Below, piece after piece: positions 1,216 to 7,571 of a DNA stretch of 64,000 bases. This DNA comes from Terracidiphilus sp. GTDB lineage: Bacteria; Acidobacteriota; Terriglobia; Terriglobales; Acidobacteriaceae. The notes beneath the pieces were generated by a model that worked only from the letters and a program-made list of their open reading frames with translations, was not told where the DNA came from and searched no databases. Every line of letters starts with the position of its first letter. Position 1 is the stretch's first letter. Position numbers and translations under genes: made by a program. The stretch lies in contig JBEKNY010000005.1 in assembly GCA_049522315.1 (NCBI GenBank), forward strand, positions 47,550-111,549. The letters run 5' to 3'.

Positions 1216-1598
1216 CATTGCAGCAAGACGCCGTCATGCTTCCCGCGGTTGCAAAATTGCCTGAGGGCGCTTTCCCTGTCTCTTTGAGGTTTTTCCCAGC
1301 CCCTCTGCGGTATTTCTGGAGCAGTTTATTTGCGGCATTGCTGGAGTTGCGCCATGTGGCTTTTTCTTGAGAGAAAGCCGCATTGGGAAGCATGACAGGG
1401 ATAGCACGATCAGCTGAATCGCAACAGTATCGCTCACCTCACCCAGGCGCCCGCCGGGCTGGGTGGGGTGAGCCGCCGGCTGGCAGGCGCGTATCACCTG
1501 CCCTCCGGCTGTGCAGCCCGATGGCCCTGTTGATGCACGCAGGAATACGGAATGCAAGAATGCAAGAAAATTCGCGCCGGAACAAGGAGAATTGGCAA

Positions 1599-4500
1599 AT
1601 GAAAATCACCCGTATCTTTTCGCTATTCGTCACGTTGACGATTCTTGCGTGGAGCCCGTTCGCCATGGGCTCATGCGTCACAACCGTCGCTACAGGCTCC
1701 TGTCCAGCAAGCGGGGCGTACCCCCAGAGCTCGAGTTTCACCGAGAGCAATGGCTATAACACCTACGTCGACAATGGCGTAACGGGCGGGTATGGCGTCA
1801 CCCCTGAAACTCAGACGCTGACCGCCAACAGCGGCTCGAGCTGGTCCGTGTTGTCCGATTTTGGGGCCAGCACGCACCAGTTGGCTTTCCCCATCACCGA
1901 GCAAGCCTACAACGCCGAGACGGTGGACAACTTCACCAACATCGTCGCGACCGCCAATGATACCATTCCCAGCAACTCCGGCACCGGGGTAGAGGCGGGC
2001 CTCCTGATCTATCTCGATAGTTGGGGCAAACAGATCGAGATCCAGCACTACGTAGAGAACGAGTCGACCTGCAACGGCACCACCCCGGTAAAGACAAGCA
2101 TCCAATTTGGCGGGTCCTACGGCGTCCCGACCAATTCCTGGGACCTGTGCTACACCGGATCGATGTACTACTGGCAGATCGTCGGCAGCGGCAGCTCCTG
2201 GGGCTTCACCAGCGGCAGCATGGAGCTCGTCTCCATGATCAAGTACCTGGAGACCAACGGGTACCTGCCGACCAGCAGCACGCTCAACGACATGAGATAC
2301 GGCTTCATGATCTACACCACCACTTCGACACAAGAGACCTTCACGCTCAACAACCTCTCGATCCTCCACAACGTTTCTTCGGGCAGCCCGACCATCGCGC
2401 TTTCTCCCACCAGCCTCAACTTCAGCGCAACGGTGGGAGGAGGGAATCCATCCGCGCAGAATGTCACCGTGAGCAACTCCGGCGGCGGCACGCTGGCGTC
2501 CCCGACCACCTCGATCAACTACAGCCAGGGCAGCGGCTGGCTCAGCGTGAACTGCACGGGCAGCTCAGCTCCCTATACGTGCGCCACGCAGCCGGCTACC
2601 GGCAGCCTCGCGGCCGGAACCTACAACGCCACGGTGAGCGTCGCGAGTTCGGGAGCGACCAACACGCCGCAGACCTATACGGTCGCGTTTACCGTGAATG
2701 CGGCGCCGCCGGCCATCTCGCTTTCTCCCACCAGCCTGAGCTTCAGCGCCACGCAGGGCGGCGGGAACCCGTCCGCGCAGAACGTTACTGTGAGCAACTC
2801 CGGCGGCGGCACGCTGGCGGTTCCGACAACCTCGATCACCTACCACAGCGGAAGCGGCTGGCTCACTGTGACCGAACAGGGCAGTTCGGCCCCCTATACA
2901 TTGGTCACCCAGCCGGCTACCGGGAGCCTCGCCGCCGGGACCTACACCGCCACGGTGAACGTCTCCAGTGCGGGAGCGAGCAACTCGCCGCAGAGCTATA
3001 CGGTCTCGTTTACCGTGAATGCGGCGTCGCCGGCCATCGCGCTTTCTCCCACCAGCCTCAACTTCAGCGCAACGGTGGGAGGAGGGAATCCATCCGCGCA
3101 GAATGTCACCGTGAGCAACTCCGGCGGCGGCACGCTGGCGTCTCCCACCACCTCGATCAACTACAGCCAGGGAAGCGGATGGCTCAGCGTGAACTGCACG
3201 GGCAGCTCGGCCCCCTATACGTGTTCCACCCAGCCGACTACCGGCAGCCTCGCGGCCGGAACCTACAACGCCACGGTGCAGGTCTCGAGCGCAGGAGCGA
3301 GCAACTCGCCGCAGAGCTATACGGTCGCCTTTACCGTGAATTCGGGATCGGCGGCGATCGCATTTGTGCAGGTCAACGCCGCGACCGTCAGTAGCGCCAA
3401 CACCGAGACGCTCGCCTTTGCATCCAACACCACAGCGGGCGACATGATCCTGGTAGGGTTCGATATGGCCAGCGGCTCGCCTACCTCAGTTACCGACACG
3501 CAAGGGAACACGTTCGTCCAGGTCGGCAGTACGCTGACTAACCCGAATGGGCACCTGGCCGCGCTCTACTACGCCGCCAACATCAAAGGAGGCGCCGACT
3601 CGGTGACCGTTAACATTTCGGCCACCGCCAACTTCCTTCAGGAGTACCTGACGGAATACTCGGGCGTGGCCACAAGCAGTCCGATCGATGTACAGGCCGG
3701 CGCTGTAGGCAGCTCCAGCACGGTTTCCAGCGGCAATGCAACTACGACCGTCGCCAACGACCTGATCTTTGGCTACATGGACAACGGCGGCAGCGGTTCG
3801 GCGGGATCGGGCTTCATGCTCCGCTCCAACTTCAGCGGCAACGTGGTCGAGGATGAGGCAGCCGGCGCCCCCGGTTCTTATGCCGCCACCGGAACCGCCA
3901 ACGCCTCCTGGACGATGCAGATGGCCGCGCTCAAACCGGCGTCTACGGGCGGCGGGTCGCCGACCATCTCGCTGTCTCCCACCAGCCTGAGCTTCAGCGC
4001 CACGCAGGGCGGCGGGAACCCGTCCGCGAAGAACGTTACCGTCAGCAACTCCGGCGGCGGCACGCTGGCGTCTCCCACCACCTCGATCAACTACAGCCAG
4101 GGCAGCGGCTGGCTCAGTGTGAACTGCACGGGCAGCCAGGCCCCCTATACCTGCTCCACGCAGCCAACGACCGGCAGCCTCTCGTCGGGAACCTACAACG
4201 CCACGGTGAGCGTCGCGAGCACGGGAGCGACCAACACGCCGCAGACCTATACGGTTGCGTTTACCGTGAATCCGGTATCGTCGCCGACCATCTCGCTATC
4301 CCCAACCAGCCTCACCTTTACCGCCACGGCGGGCGGCGGGAACCCGTCCTCGCAGAATGTCACCGTGAGCAACTCCGGCGGCGGCACTCTGGCGGTCCCG
4401 ACCACCTCGACCACCTACCACAGCGGAAGCGGCTGGCTCAGCGTTCAGGTTCAGGGCAGTTCGGCCCCCTATACGTTGGTCAATCAGCCGACTACCGGGA

Positions 4501-5387
4501 GCCTTTCGGCCGGAACCTACACCGCCACGGTGAGCGTCGCGAGCACGGGAGCGACCAACACGCCGCAGACCTATAGCGTCACCTTTACCGTGAATTCGGG
4601 ATCGGTGTGCACCATAACCGCCGCGCTTGGCGTGTGTCCGTCGAGCGGGTTGTACTACGACACAGGGCTCAGCCCGACTACGTGGGGGCAAATCACGCAA
4701 AACGACGTGTGGAGCCCGCCTTCCACGTGGAGCCAGACGATGTATACGACCAACCCCGGGAACTGGTATATCGTAGCCAACTTCCCGACGGACAGCTCGG
4801 GAGCTATCCACTCTTACCCCAGCGCAGCGATTCAGTACTACGAGTCTGGACAGACTAGCGATCCCAACCCGACGCTGGACAGCTTCAGCGAAATCGTCGG
4901 CACGTTCTCGGAGACGGCCCCCAGTGCGTCGACGGGTGTAGTCAGCGATATTGGCTACGACATGTGGTTCAACAATTGGGCCAGCGAGATCATGATCCAG
5001 CACCAGAACATCAACACCGACGTGTGCACGGACTGGACCACCGTCATCGCCACCAACGTCCAATTCGGCGGGTCGAACGGCGTCCCGACACAGACCTGGA
5101 ACCTATGTCAAAACGGCACCTTTGGCTCGTCGAATCCGGAGCTCATCTGGCAGTACTATACGACTGCCGGCAGCAAGACTTTTGGCGAGAGCTCCTCGAG
5201 CGTGGACATCTACGCCATGCTCAAGTACCTGGAGGGCCACGCCATATGCAAGACCTCGAGTGGTACTACGGCCTGCCTGCCGTCGGGTAGCACGCTCACC
5301 CAGTTCGGCTATGGCTTTGAAATCAGCACCACGGACGGGGTAAACCAGACATTTACGGTGAACAGCTTGACACAGACCGCCCAATAG
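1599..5387 (+). CDS. Large secreted protein: signal peptide, degenerate GH12-like domain, five Ig/BACON-like repeats with one inserted beta-domain, C-terminal GH12-like domain
   Basis: AAGGAG RBS before ATG 1599, so the ORF-track start at 1383 is probably too early. Signal MKITRIFSLFVTLTILAWSPFAMG. ~107-aa repeats (LSPTSLxFSAT...GWLSV...GTYxATVxV). C-terminal YDMWF..EIMIQ and YGFEI resemble GH12 catalytic motifs. Confidence 0.8.
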   Translation: MKITRIFSLFVTLTILAWSPFAMGSCVTTVATGSCPASGAYPQSSSFTESNGYNTYVDNGVTGGYGVTPETQTLTANSGSSWSVLSDFGASTHQLAFPITEQAYNAETVDNFTNIVATANDTIPSNSGTGVEAGLLIYLDSWGKQIEIQHYVENESTCNGTTPVKTSIQFGGSYGVPTNSWDLCYTGSMYYWQIVGSGSSWGFTSGSMELVSMIKYLETNGYLPTSSTLNDMRYGFMIYTTTSTQETFTLNNLSILHNVSSGSPTIALSPTSLNFSATVGGGNPSAQNVTVSNSGGGTLASPTTSINYSQGSGWLSVNCTGSSAPYTCATQPATGSLAAGTYNATVSVASSGATNTPQTYTVAFTVNAAPPAISLSPTSLSFSATQGGGNPSAQNVTVSNSGGGTLAVPTTSITYHSGSGWLTVTEQGSSAPYTLVTQPATGSLAAGTYTATVNVSSAGASNSPQSYTVSFTVNAASPAIALSPTSLNFSATVGGGNPSAQNVTVSNSGGGTLASPTTSINYSQGSGWLSVNCTGSSAPYTCSTQPTTGSLAAGTYNATVQVSSAGASNSPQSYTVAFTVNSGSAAIAFVQVNAATVSSANTETLAFASNTTAGDMILVGFDMASGSPTSVTDTQGNTFVQVGSTLTNPNGHLAALYYAANIKGGADSVTVNISATANFLQEYLTEYSGVATSSPIDVQAGAVGSSSTVSSGNATTTVANDLIFGYMDNGGSGSAGSGFMLRSNFSGNVVEDEAAGAPGSYAATGTANASWTMQMAALKPASTGGGSPTISLSPTSLSFSATQGGGNPSAKNVTVSNSGGGTLASPTTSINYSQGSGWLSVNCTGSQAPYTCSTQPTTGSLSSGTYNATVSVASTGATNTPQTYTVAFTVNPVSSPTISLSPTSLTFTATAGGGNPSSQNVTVSNSGGGTLAVPTTSTTYHSGSGWLSVQVQGSSAPYTLVNQPTTGSLSAGTYTATVSVASTGATNTPQTYSVTFTVNSGSVCTITAALGVCPSSGLYYDTGLSPTTWGQITQNDVWSPPSTWSQTMYTTNPGNWYIVANFPTDSSGAIHSYPSAAIQYYESGQTSDPNPTLDSFSEIVGTFSETAPSASTGVVSDIGYDMWFNNWASEIMIQHQNINTDVCTDWTTVIATNVQFGGSNGVPTQTWNLCQNGTFGSSNPELIWQYYTTAGSKTFGESSSSVDIYAMLKYLEGHAICKTSSGTTACLPSGSTLTQFGYGFEISTTDGVNQTFTVNSLTQTAQ
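2390..4600 (+). repeat. Intragenic ~321-bp repeats (5 units) encoding Ig/BACON-like domains
   Basis: Units start near 2393, 2714, 3035, 3964 and 4288 and are highly similar at the DNA level. Confidence 0.9.
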
Positions 5388-5393
5388 TTGAAC

Positions 5394-5440
5394 GAGAGCG
5401 GGAGAAGCAAATCATCTTCTCCCGCTCTCACCCCTTTTTG
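5394..5440 (+). terminator. Rho-independent terminator after the large secreted protein gene
   Basis: Perfect 14-bp stem GAGAGCGGGAGAAG-caaatcat-CTTCTCCCGCTCTC followed by ACCCCTTTTTG. Confidence 0.8.
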
Positions 5441-5591
5441 TCCCAGTAGCATTCTGGGACCCCCGAGAAAACACCATTGCCGTCCCTTCCACGCGTTCCG
5501 GCAAAGCAATAGCAGCTCCATTGCGTACTGCGGAATGCACGGTGAAACGACTTAGCCGCGTGCTTCCGCAGGCGCATGAAAAGGAGAATCT

Positions 5592-6371
5592 ATGCAACAC
5601 CGGACAATTTCCCAAACCCTGTCATGGTTCGCCGTCGCATCCCTGGCGCTGGCGATTGTATTCTCGCCAGCCCGCGCCAACGCCTCGGGGGAATTCTGCA
5701 ACTCGTGGCTCTCGCCACTGACGACCGGCGGCTGGACCAGTTTGACGCTTGTGGTCGTAGGCGATATATCGCTGGACGACATCCAAGCCTCTCTGGCCCC
5801 TGGGCTCGATCCGTTCTATGCGTACAACCCGTCCACCGCCAAGGTCAGCATGTCGTACAACCCAGCCACAGGCAAGACAACAATCACATTCACTGGAGGC
5901 CCGCTTCCACAGGGCTTCACGAATATTCCGGGGCATGACCCGCATGTCGGTATTGCCAACATCACCAACGGAGGTTGGTGTAGCCTTATTACCTATACAT
6001 GGGGCAAGGCCGGCCCCCCGACAACCCAAAGTGGGCCCGCGGTCGGCGTCGAAAACAATAACGGCTTTCCGGCTAATCCAACGGGCTACTATATCCTCTA
6101 CCTCCAGTACACACAGGGCAGCCCAGCCACTGCAGGCGGCACATGGGCAGAAATCCCTTACAGCGGAAGCCTCCCGACGTGGACCCTCGTCACGGGCAAG
6201 GCCTCACCCTCCAACCCGGTTACCTTCAATAATGCCGGCTACTGGACCAGCACCACCGAGATTCCGCTGGACGAACTCAATTATGGCTATATGAATCCAG
6301 GCAGCCCGGCCTTTGGGAACGCGTGGCACCAGTTGGCCGATCCGCCCCCGCTCACTACGCAGGTGCCCTGA
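5592..6371 (+). CDS. Secreted protein of PEP-CTERM-like type; its sorting tail lies beyond the stop codon
   Basis: AAGGAG RBS. Signal peptide MQHRTISQTLSWFAVASLALAIVFSPARA. Ends ...TTQVP-TGA, followed in frame by SLVPEGGSGWRYLLLAGAVCCGALLF. Confidence 0.8.
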   Translation: MQHRTISQTLSWFAVASLALAIVFSPARANASGEFCNSWLSPLTTGGWTSLTLVVVGDISLDDIQASLAPGLDPFYAYNPSTAKVSMSYNPATGKTTITFTGGPLPQGFTNIPGHDPHVGIANITNGGWCSLITYTWGKAGPPTTQSGPAVGVENNNGFPANPTGYYILYLQYTQGSPATAGGTWAEIPYSGSLPTWTLVTGKASPSNPVTFNNAGYWTSTTEIPLDELNYGYMNPGSPAFGNAWHQLADPPPLTTQVP

Positions 6372-6460
6372 TCTCTTGTGCCCGAAGGCGGCTCGGGGTG
6401 GAGGTACCTGCTCCTGGCCGGGGCTGTGTGTTGCGGGGCGCTGCTCTTCGCGCCTCGCAG
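6372..6460 (+). other. In-frame VPEGG (PEP-CTERM-like) sorting signal and transmembrane helix after a UGA
   Basis: GTG CCC GAA GGC GGC at 6378-6392 is in the same frame as 5592..6371 and is followed by a hydrophobic helix and PR. Confidence 0.65.
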
Positions 6461-6584
6461 CGTTTTTGTCCCAGTAGTAGTATTCTGGAACTTCCGAGGA
6501 AACGCTTCTTCGAGCAGCCCGGCCATCTCGCTTGTCTCCTCATCTTCTCTAGACATTTATGAGGTGGGTTCTGGTATTGTGCAG

Positions 6585-6705
6585 GCCCCAGTTATCTTCG
6601 AGTTACTAACCTCCGATTACTTACCTTAGCCCATTGTCCCTCCGTAACTTGATTCTTCCGTCAATACTCCGCATTTCCCTTGACACTTGTGTCAATGGCG
6701 ATCTA
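6585..6705 (+). promoter_or_regulatory. Second copy of the upstream block; palindrome TTGACAC-TT-GTGTCAA overlaps the -35
   Basis: Near-identical to 1090-1200. Perfect 7-bp inverted repeat at 6680-6695. Confidence 0.55.
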
Positions 6706-6755: not shown

Positions 6756-7571
6756 GTGAGAAACAACTCTGTTTTCTCTCTCACCGTGCTAGTGGCGCTG
6801 GTTATTCTCGCTTCTAGCTCGTTCGCTATGGGCCAATATGTTTGCTCCACTTCCTCCGCGAGCGGCATCTGCGGACCGTACAACGACACGGATGTCACCG
6901 ATAATGGCGGCGGCAACTCCAATGTCCAGAACGACGTCTGGAACCCTCAAACCGGATGGTCGGAGACGCTGTACACGGTCTCCGAGGGGAGATGGTGGGT
7001 GGCGGCCAAGATGGCCTCGGGCTATACGGGCGTGCAATCGTACCCCGACACGGACATCCTGTTCAGCAGTTGGTTGCCGAGCGCCAATCCCAAAATCAAC
7101 AGCTTCTCCTACATGTACTCCTCGTTTGTGAGCACAGTACCCACCAGCTCTGGTACCATCGAAGACTCCGGCTACGACATGTGGTTCAACAGTTACGGCA
7201 ACGAGGTGATGATCCAGAACCAGGTCGTCAACCGCAGCGCGTGTACCCAATACATGACCGTACTGGCCACCAACCTCACCTTTGGCGGGACGCACGGCGT
7301 CCCATCAAATAAATGGAACCTGTGTCGGAACGGCGGTGCGGGTTCGGAACTCGTCTTCCAGTGGGTCCCGCCGACGGGCACCTCTACGAATTTTGGCGTC
7401 TCTTCCGGGACCGTGGACATCTACGGCATGCTCTCGTACCTGGGGACCAACGGGTACTTGGCGTCGACCTCCACGATTACCGCGATCCAATACGGTTTCG
7501 AAATTGGCAGCACGGGCGGCACAACCGAGAACTTCTACGTGGACGCCTTCTCGCTTACCGCCAGTCACTAA
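6756..7571 (+). CDS. Secreted GH12-like glycoside hydrolase (single domain)
   Basis: AGGAGG RBS and GTG start. Signal peptide. Motifs NDVWN, VQSYP, SGYDMWF..EVMIQ and YGFEI. Paralogous to the C-terminal domain of 1599..5387. Confidence 0.8.
   Translation: MRNNSVFSLTVLVALVILASSSFAMGQYVCSTSSASGICGPYNDTDVTDNGGGNSNVQNDVWNPQTGWSETLYTVSEGRWWVAAKMASGYTGVQSYPDTDILFSSWLPSANPKINSFSYMYSSFVSTVPTSSGTIEDSGYDMWFNSYGNEVMIQNQVVNRSACTQYMTVLATNLTFGGTHGVPSNKWNLCRNGGAGSELVFQWVPPTGTSTNFGVSSGTVDIYGMLSYLGTNGYLASTSTITAIQYGFEIGSTGGTTENFYVDAFSLTASH

Follow-up and report, generated by a model that had tools for sequence, protein, structure and literature searches.

The PEP-CTERM sorting signal is defined by three elements at the C-terminus of a protein, namely a PEP motif, then some 14 hydrophobic residues and finally a cluster of about 5 basic ones, and the proteins that carry it usually occur several to a genome and are paired with EpsH (Haft et al. 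2006, PMC1569441). In the literature we found no paper that links PEP-CTERM with stop-codon read-through, and none on the exosortase XrtJ. Two systems outside exosortase sorting also bear on the present case. In Listeria monocytogenes, premature stops in inlA deprive internalin of its LPXTG anchor, so that the truncated protein is released, and the allele is maintained in natural lineages. In phage Qbeta, the A1 protein carries an extension of the coat protein made by read-through of a UGA; this extension is conserved and closed by a defined stop, and the phage needs it to be infectious.

The locus described here lies in a stretch of Terracidiphilus sp. DNA of 64,000 nucleotides, which we call the window. 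Like Qbeta A1, it has an in-frame stop followed by an open extension of plausible function; unlike Qbeta A1, the stop is mostly UAA across the lineages and stands in a strong termination context, while the extension appears decayed and has no shared end. The likeness to inlA goes further, since in both a nonsense codon 5' of a C-terminal sorting signal would turn an anchored protein into a released one. The differences are that inlA belongs to the sortase/LPXTG system of a Gram-positive bacterium, whereas the truncation in the window seems to be fixed across diverged lineages, with the remnant of the tail apparently reused as a 3'UTR. In our judgement the feature is very probably an ordinary gene truncation, a further instance of a known event and not regulated read-through. 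The parts of the locus that are needed for this argument are the following.

5581..5586, plus strand: Shine-Dalgarno sequence AAGGAG, 5 nt 5' of the ATG, read from the sequence and kept in orthologues
5592..6371 (stop codon included), plus strand: gene for a secreted protein of 259 aa, from the ORF list
6369..6371, plus strand: stop codon TGA, in a linker, three codons 5' of the V of VPEGG; TAA in 3/3 orthologue clusters
6372..6461, plus strand: remnant of a VPEGG-type exosortase sorting tail, from the translation and an HMM of intact VPEGG tails
6462..6629, plus strand: 56 further read-through codons (VFVPVVVFWNFRGN...DYLP, then TAG at 6627-6629), unlike the post-tail sequence in the orthologous loci L004 and L011

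The open reading frame starts with the ATG at 5592 and ends with the TGA at 6369-6371, both read from the sequence. Its 259-aa product begins with the signal peptide MQHRTISQTLSWFAVASLALAIVFSPARA, whose putative cleavage site after 29 residues would leave about 230 residues in the mature protein, and has no match in Pfam or NCBIfam. The body of the protein is all-beta in an AlphaFold2 model (mean pLDDT 78) and, on that model, is a beta-sandwich; a fold search of the PDB with the same model found no significant neighbour, the best match reaching E 0.012 with TM values of 0.19-0.22 among generic two-domain Ig/FnIII-like structures. The truncated gene is, to judge from its substitutions, alive and under purifying selection, because in two independent pairs the coding part has 102.5 nonsynonymous versus 74.5 synonymous differences, a nonsynonymous share of 0.58 against a neutral expectation of 0.75 (p = 3e-7).

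The original prediction held that a single in-frame TGA separates this secreted protein from a VPEGG tail, and the sequence, the ORF list and the translation all agree with it. Past the TGA the same frame continues SLVPEGGSGWRYLLLAGAVCCGALLFAPRS, the translation being S L V P E G G S G W R Y L L L A G A V C C G A L L F A P R S, with VPEGG coded at 6378-6392 and a lone Arg at 6456-6458. The earlier transcription of the tail is correct in its letters down to ...FAPR, but the end that it appeared to have there is not an end, as the tail has no stop of its own and another 56 codons follow in the same open frame (SVFVPVVVFWNFRGNASSS...DYLP). A hypothetical read-through product would thus count 345 aa and lack a basic cluster. 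The hydrophobic helix, YLLLAGAVCCGALLF, spans 15 residues (6405-6449), in keeping with the 14 or so expected of a PEP-CTERM signal. After the helix there is no arginine cluster, only APRS with its one Arg, where homologues have RRRR. The motif also departs from Pro-Glu-Pro, the third residue being Gly (V-P-E-G-G), and the tail is not at the extreme C-terminus, with the TGA 5' of it and 56 codons after the Arg.

Neither the tail alone nor the read-through product has a Pfam match at E <= 1, PF07589 included, or an NCBIfam match at E <= 10. The relation of the tail to sorting signals becomes visible with a dedicated model. From three intact VPEGG tails of other Acidobacteriaceae genomes we built an HMM of 41 positions, which matches the window's tail over VPEGGSGWRYLLLAGAVCCGALLF with E 2.1e-9 and 39.3 bits (model positions 5-33/41). 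The VPEGG-type tail is a class delineated in this analysis, and is unmatched by PF07589 or NCBIfam. In the 11 intact tails that were read it follows the pattern VPEGG-xxx-YL(L/M)LAG..C(F)GA..(L/F)-RRRRQ, with the stop about 8-12 residues further on, and it is always fused to a protein. The VPEGG variant of the exosortase signal is well defined and is missed by the current Pfam and NCBIfam models. The window's copy shares with the class the VPEGG, the three residues that follow, the YL(L/M)L and a helix with Cys-x-Gly-Ala; the RRRRQ-like cluster, the stop 8-12 residues on and the fusion to a protein, which the intact members have, are absent from it and from the tail of L004.

The origin of the tail is best seen in the more distant relatives of the 259-aa protein. 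When 1.84 billion representatives were searched in full with HMMER, 36 matches came back, the first of which is an orthologue and the others mostly proteins of 270-320 aa, 28-42% identical over the stretches that matched. Of 25 distant homologues that were read, with 23-40% identity, nearly all are single open reading frames whose C-terminus has (V/L)PEP(S/A/G) followed by a hydrophobic helix and RRRR before the stop; an example is ...TTSVPEPSSLALLGIGAVSLLARDWRRRMAKA, and VPEPSS..RRRR endings are found among these continuous frames. They are typical of PEP-CTERM/exosortase sorting (PF07589, TIGR02595), consisting of a signal peptide, a Thr/Ser/Asn-rich body without a Pfam domain, the PEP, the helix and the Arg cluster. 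In the alignment, the invariant PE of the family lines up with the PE in VPEGG of the window, and the stop maps to the variable linker immediately 5' of it. Since the distant homologues are single frames with a PEP-CTERM tail, the ancestral architecture is, on this comparison, a single frame that comprises signal peptide, body and sorting tail, so that the anchor would be ancestral and now cut off by the stop. The tail in the window goes back to a signal of this kind, although it is separated by the stop, reads PEG in place of PEP, has one Arg, does not lie at the end of a frame and is matched by no PEP-CTERM model. Its earlier identification as an exosortase-type sorting tail is upheld both by the continuous frames of the homologues and by the VPEGG HMM (E 2e-9).

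The stop codon itself was at first suspected of being a recent nonsense mutation or a sequencing error. The exact 259-aa product is found on 17 contigs, and the TGA with 290 nt around and after it is identical to the window in six independent JGI/ENA assemblies that were read (L030-L035). An error of sequencing or assembly can be rejected because the locus is the same in these six further assemblies. Among 5.8 billion proteins there are only three clusters of orthologues, with 82-88% amino-acid identity and each exactly 259 aa long, and their DNA reads CCC TAA TCT, at the same codon in 3/3 clusters, where the window reads CCC TGA TCT. The TAA version is identical across 8 loci from several samples. 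No further orthologues were found in 200 genomes of the family, and scans of metagenome and genome contigs gave known loci only; weak matches at L013 and L022 (in genome G066) were discarded, their translations looking like noise. The synonymous divergence between the lineages is 0.16-0.29, with a dN/dS of 0.4-0.6 in the coding part. A stop at the same codon in four lineages places the truncation before their split; by this comparison the stop is old and fixed, and not of recent origin. It should be pointed out that the stop has survived an A/G change (TAA versus TGA), an observation that counts against reading the locus as a simple truncation.

Two other explanations of the stop were considered and rejected. 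The original prediction had mentioned a SECIS role as a weak possibility. Selenocysteine is excluded by the TAA of the orthologues, and aragorn, run on the organism's own genome, found 42 tRNAs with none for Sec and no suppressor tRNA among them. An altered genetic code is equally untenable, as the same site holds two different stop codons.

A further alternative is stop-codon read-through, programmed or tolerated, in which minority decoding of the UGA or UAA would yield, beside a released form of the protein, one that is held in the membrane or passed to an exosortase. The conservation of the stop as a stop in four lineages speaks for it, as does the fact that the in-frame tail retains VPEGG and a hydrophobic helix. 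The nature of the stop does not: it is TAA in all but one of the four lineages, and the base that follows is T in every one. Both UGA-U and UAA-U are efficient termination contexts in E. coli. The lack of a suppressor tRNA or a tRNA-Sec weighs in the same direction. The small hairpin that had been noted, CCCGA (6381-6385) pairing with TCGGG (6393-6397), is indeed where it was described and begins 9 nt 3' of the stop; this 5-bp stem is, however, absent from the minimum-energy fold of the window's sequence and broken in L011 (CCCGA...CTGGAG), and no conserved structure is found 3' of the stop. We consider read-through of either kind very unlikely, and the evolution of the tail, to which we now turn, adds to the case against it.

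Between the window and L004, 6 of 95 tail bases differ, distributed 4/1/1 over codon positions 1/2/3. Together with the nine tail codons of L010 this makes 6 nonsynonymous changes to 1 synonymous, a nonsynonymous share of 0.86 against a neutral expectation of 0.72. With only 7 events, this share is compatible with neutrality and marginally incompatible with the constraint on the coding sequence (p = 0.07). In L004 one of the changes, in the tail SLLPEGSSGWRYLLLARAVCCGALLFTPRS, puts an Arg in place of a Gly inside the helix, which counts against read-through. The homology between the window and L004 stops at ...CGCAGCG, after ...PRS, and the two are unrelated beyond; an extension would run through 56 codons of unrelated sequence in the window and about 66 in L004, with neither an arginine cluster nor a conserved second stop. 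To judge from this pattern, the tail DNA does not look translated and would be an untranslated remnant that changes like non-coding DNA. The original prediction had looked to an alignment of orthologues for a conserved stop in front of a tail under purifying selection; the first was found, as TGA or TAA, and the second was not. Programmed read-through, one of its two proposals, therefore loses its footing, in that the tail behind the conserved stop shows no purifying selection and lacks both a basic cluster and its own stop.

Two features of the tails sit less comfortably with a truncation. The identity between the window and L004 is 93.7% in the tail versus 88.8% in the coding sequence, which counts against a truncation, although the tail does not differ significantly from the rate of the 5'UTR (p = 0.12). 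The other feature is the tail of L011. After VPEGG its nucleotides cannot be aligned, yet they read as a spacer, a hydrophobic stretch, a Lys and a stop (VPEGGWSRPSAALRYLAFAIVMLAAPAKTFMQS and WSRPSAALRYLAFAIVMLAAPAKTFMQS, each followed by the stop), so that this unrelated version of the tail is also in frame, helix-like and stop-ended, as read-through would have it. The pattern suggests that the L011 tail was replaced by that of a paralogue, through recombination at the VPEGG-coding motif that both have, in which case the frame would have been kept automatically. This presumed recombination is the only explanation that a truncation offers for the L011 tail, and the point is to be counted against it. 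Tail-like sequence in frame follows the stop in all four lineages.

The tail could also be taken for a separate small gene, with a GTG start at 6378 (TTG in L004) and a membrane peptide as its product, translationally coupled to the 259-aa gene. There is a V or L codon that could serve as a start in all four lineages (GTG in three, TTG in one), six bases after the stop; an AGGTG lies 12 nt upstream, and the peptide would contain one hydrophobic helix. GTG is, on the other hand, a common Val codon in this G+C-rich DNA, and the frames that would result differ in length (83 aa in the window, about 93 aa in L004, 33 aa in L011) and have nothing in common past ...PRS. The mostly nonsynonymous substitutions do not suit a small gene any better than they suit an extension, and the gene calls of the 14 assemblies listed place no plus-strand gene over the tail. 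The clear homology of the tail to the C-terminal tails of larger proteins also speaks for a detached end and not for a gene, and we regard a coupled small gene as extremely improbable.

A truncation leaves the question of why the DNA of the tail has stayed with the gene, and a possible answer comes from the structures that the region can form and from the extent of the sequence shared with L004.

5394..5439, plus strand: intrinsic terminator of the upstream 1334-aa gene, from a terminator scan; 14-bp stem, then ACCCC and TTTTT
5435..5472, plus strand: copy A of an element of about 40 nt, TTTTTGTCCCAG-N7-CTGGGAC-CCCCGAGAAAAC, immediately ahead of the left end of the L004 block
5468..6466, plus strand: block 89% identical in nucleotides to L004, from blastn and identity in 50-nt steps
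6428..6468, plus strand: predicted intrinsic terminator inside the tail remnant, from a terminator scan; hairpin at 6428-6463, then TTTTTG
6463..6503, plus strand: copy B of the element of about 40 nt, TTTTTGTCCCAG-N10-CTGGAAC-TTCCGAGGAAAC, starting where the homology with L004 ends

The hairpin at 6428-6463 has 14 pairs, 9 of them G-C, and an 8-nt loop, with a folding energy of -24.5 kcal/mol (z -3.6), and it likely serves, together with the T-run, as the intrinsic terminator of the gene. The layout matches that of the upstream 1334-aa gene, whose clear terminator (-27.8 kcal/mol, z -7.3) is followed by the same 40-nt element. This element has only two copies in the 3.6-Mb genome, and is also found 5' of the gene in L011. 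The sequence in common with L004 starts about 124 nt 5' of the ATG and reaches as far as the T-run behind the tail hairpin, while the genomic contexts on either side differ, and by its boundaries the block is the extent of one transcription unit. A terminator within the tail would explain why the remnant travels with the gene. It would also stand in the way of an extension: a ribosome leaking past the stop would reach the 3' end of the mRNA without meeting a stop codon.

The same truncation may, of course, have left a remnant with no function at all. The hairpin and the T-run would then be a by-product of G+C-rich Leu, Ala and Gly codons, with the true terminator at some other place. The tail is conserved between the window and L004 not significantly above the 5'UTR, as mentioned, and the T-run of L004 is degraded to CTTTGG, even if the hairpin there is kept (-24.1 kcal/mol); in L011 the tail has no comparable fold (z -0.8). 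These points keep a functionless remnant within reach as a possible, if doubtful, account. The strength of the window's hairpin, with TTTTTG directly after it, the match to the upstream terminator and its element, and the exact end of the L004-shared block at the T-run all speak against it. In reading the tail as a truncated sorting signal turned terminator, one should bear in mind that the terminator is a prediction, that its T-run is weak in L004 and that the substitutions in the tail amount to 7 events.

The sorting machinery of the window's organism and of its relatives was surveyed as well. The organism's genome, of 3.6 Mb and rated 100% complete, has a single exosortase, XrtJ (TIGR04199, 435 bits), and neither XrtA nor a further PEP-CTERM or VPEGG protein was found in it. 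A six-frame search of this genome with PF07589 gave 0 matches at E <= 1, and two custom pattern scans found no tripartite C-terminal tails in it. It compares with five related genomes as follows.

Own genome (G000): XrtJ only; 0 PEP-CTERM matches
G201 (genome of L004): XrtA, just over the NCBIfam cut-off; 7 PEP-CTERM matches over the Pfam cut-off
G186: exosortase 68% identical to the XrtA of G201; 3 PEP-CTERM matches over the Pfam cut-off
G066: exosortase 54% identical to the XrtA of G201; 3 PEP-CTERM matches over the Pfam cut-off
G062: no exosortase found; 0 PEP-CTERM matches
G006: distant exosortase homologue only, 31% identical to the XrtA of G201; 0 PEP-CTERM matches

Relatives with XrtA or a close homologue (G201, G186, G066) thus have 3-7 PF07589 matches over the cut-off, versus 0 in the organism's own genome, where the combination that marks a PEP-CTERM system, several instances together with a cognate exosortase (EpsH/XrtA), is not found. 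XrtJ was considered as the partner of the tail. VPEGG tails occur in 19 of 201 genomes of the family (the window's own remnant included) and XrtJ, over its family cut-off, in 11 of the 201, and the two sets overlap in this genome only. Such a distribution makes XrtJ an unlikely partner, and with no other co-occurrence across the 201 genomes the pairing was rejected as unsupported. These searches turned up no sorting enzyme to match the tail, and to judge from them the window's organism lacks an evident means of processing it. The presence of XrtJ in this genome and of XrtA in that of L004 could be cited in favour of read-through, but in the former there is neither an XrtA nor another substrate, and XrtJ is not associated with VPEGG tails. 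For the truncation, the XrtA in the genome of L004 is an adverse point, as the sorting enzyme is not missing in every lineage.

If stops in front of such tails were a recurrent device, one would expect to see them in other genes as well. Among the 11 intact VPEGG tails read in other genomes, none has a stop just before the motif, which speaks against read-through at the present locus, and the idea of a recurrent device was rejected on the same ground. Two short open frames, L042 and L045, turned out to be complete mini-proteins with signal peptides of their own.

A restricted form of read-through can still be imagined, in which the stop acts as a "valve" and low-level read-through, mainly in lineages with XrtA (e.g. 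the SPRUCE 413 Terracidiphilus MAG), routes a small share of the protein to an exosortase, the greater part being released. We give this only a slight chance; were it true, the tail would be a bacterial dual-localisation signal set by the efficiency of termination.

The account that in all likelihood is correct is that an old, fixed nonsense truncation removed an exosortase-type anchor, leaving a 259-aa product that is secreted without an anchor and a remnant that is not translated. The ancestors would have been secreted beta-sandwich proteins of about 270-320 aa with a PEP-CTERM/exosortase sorting tail at the C-terminus. A nonsense codon would have arisen in the linker, three codons 5' of VPEGG, in the ancestor shared by a small Terracidiphilus-like clade, and would have been kept since in the four known lineages, as TAA in three and as TGA in the window. 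The 259-aa product would be exported by its signal peptide and released, and the former tail DNA would have lost its arginine cluster and its own stop, while the G+C-rich part that once coded for the helix may now form the terminator hairpin (6428-6468). Selection against a hydrophobic extension would suffice to keep the stop in place after so old a truncation.

The truncation, taken alone, is a minor finding. Its by-products may possibly be of more use, namely the VPEGG variant of the sorting signal and a genome that has exosortase J but no recognisable substrate for it. There is also a point for annotation and for searches for read-through, in that a conserved stop followed by an open frame with a recognisable motif can be the long-lasting look of an old truncation. 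What the locus offers to the biology of the family is a clean and datable case of a surface or matrix protein that would have become freely released through the loss of its sorting tail. The truncated allele appears to have been kept under selection across several lineages of peat-soil Acidobacteriaceae, and the dead tail probably lives on as the terminator of the gene.

The VPEGG variant is a well-defined form of the exosortase sorting signal, with the consensus VPEGG-xxx-YL(L/M)LAG..C(F)GA..L-RRRRQ and a stop codon 8–12 residues past the RRRRQ. It is present in 19 of the 201 Acidobacteriaceae genomes at one to five copies per genome, and it is carried by mutually unrelated proteins, among them mini-proteins of about 80–100 aa. 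Neither PF07589, the PEP-CTERM model of Pfam, nor the NCBIfam models recognise it. The loci of other genomes where it was read are as follows.

L014, 739–1629: VPEGG-variant locus
L018, 943–1620: VPEGG-variant locus
L020, 1474–1983, minus strand: VPEGG-variant locus
L038–L047: VPEGG-variant loci

Exosortase J (XrtJ) scores over the family cut-off in 11 of the 201 genomes, and the two do not co-occur in this set, the only overlap being the genome of the window itself, where the VPEGG tail is a remnant. In that genome, which carries exosortase J, no tripartite C-terminal tail of the PEP-CTERM, VPEGG or any other type is recognisable.

Contig C10, 87463–88989 (L002, 1243–3021): exosortase J, TIGR04199, 435 bits

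The distant homologues of the 259-aa protein (P0004–P0036) belong to one PEP-CTERM protein family, with lengths of about 270–320 aa, no Pfam domain and the conserved motif ...G(Y/F)xxSxTEIPLDxLN...PPPG. Their fold is predicted to be a beta-sandwich, for which a PDB search returned no significant match. In one homologue, P0007 (373 aa), the tail was lost by another route, the sequence running on into a different domain.

In the window, the gene of the 259-aa protein lies between two genes whose products are paralogues of each other.

Window 1383–5387: 1334-aa protein gene, upstream
Window 6756–7571: 271-aa secreted protein gene, downstream

The 271-aa protein is related to both ends of the 1334-aa protein, with 42% identity to the C-terminal domain (E 1e-57) and 33% to the N-terminal domain; the larger protein additionally contains some six Ig-like repeats. 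Pfam gives no firm matches for either paralogue.

The unit has a different context in L004, an orthologue locus of the SPRUCE 413 Terracidiphilus MAG, where a full TP_methylase gene and a TP_methylase gene fragment of about 80–110 aa flank it.

L004, 1694–2590 and 3876–4109 (minus strand): TP_methylase genes, PF00590

Since this context differs from that of the window, the unit has either changed its location or been caught up in a rearrangement of the region. In the window the unit is also flanked by a pair of elements of about 40 nt that occur nowhere else in the genome, each directly 3' of the terminator of one of two neighbouring genes.

Window 5435–5472: element, first copy
Window 6463–6503: element, second copy

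The element follows the pattern TTTTTGTCCCAG..CTGGRAC..CGAGRAAAC, with a 7-bp palindrome within, and a single copy is found upstream of the orthologue in L011, a further orthologue locus. One candidate role is that of an operator; alternatively, the element may mark a duplication that arose on insertion of the 259-aa gene unit.
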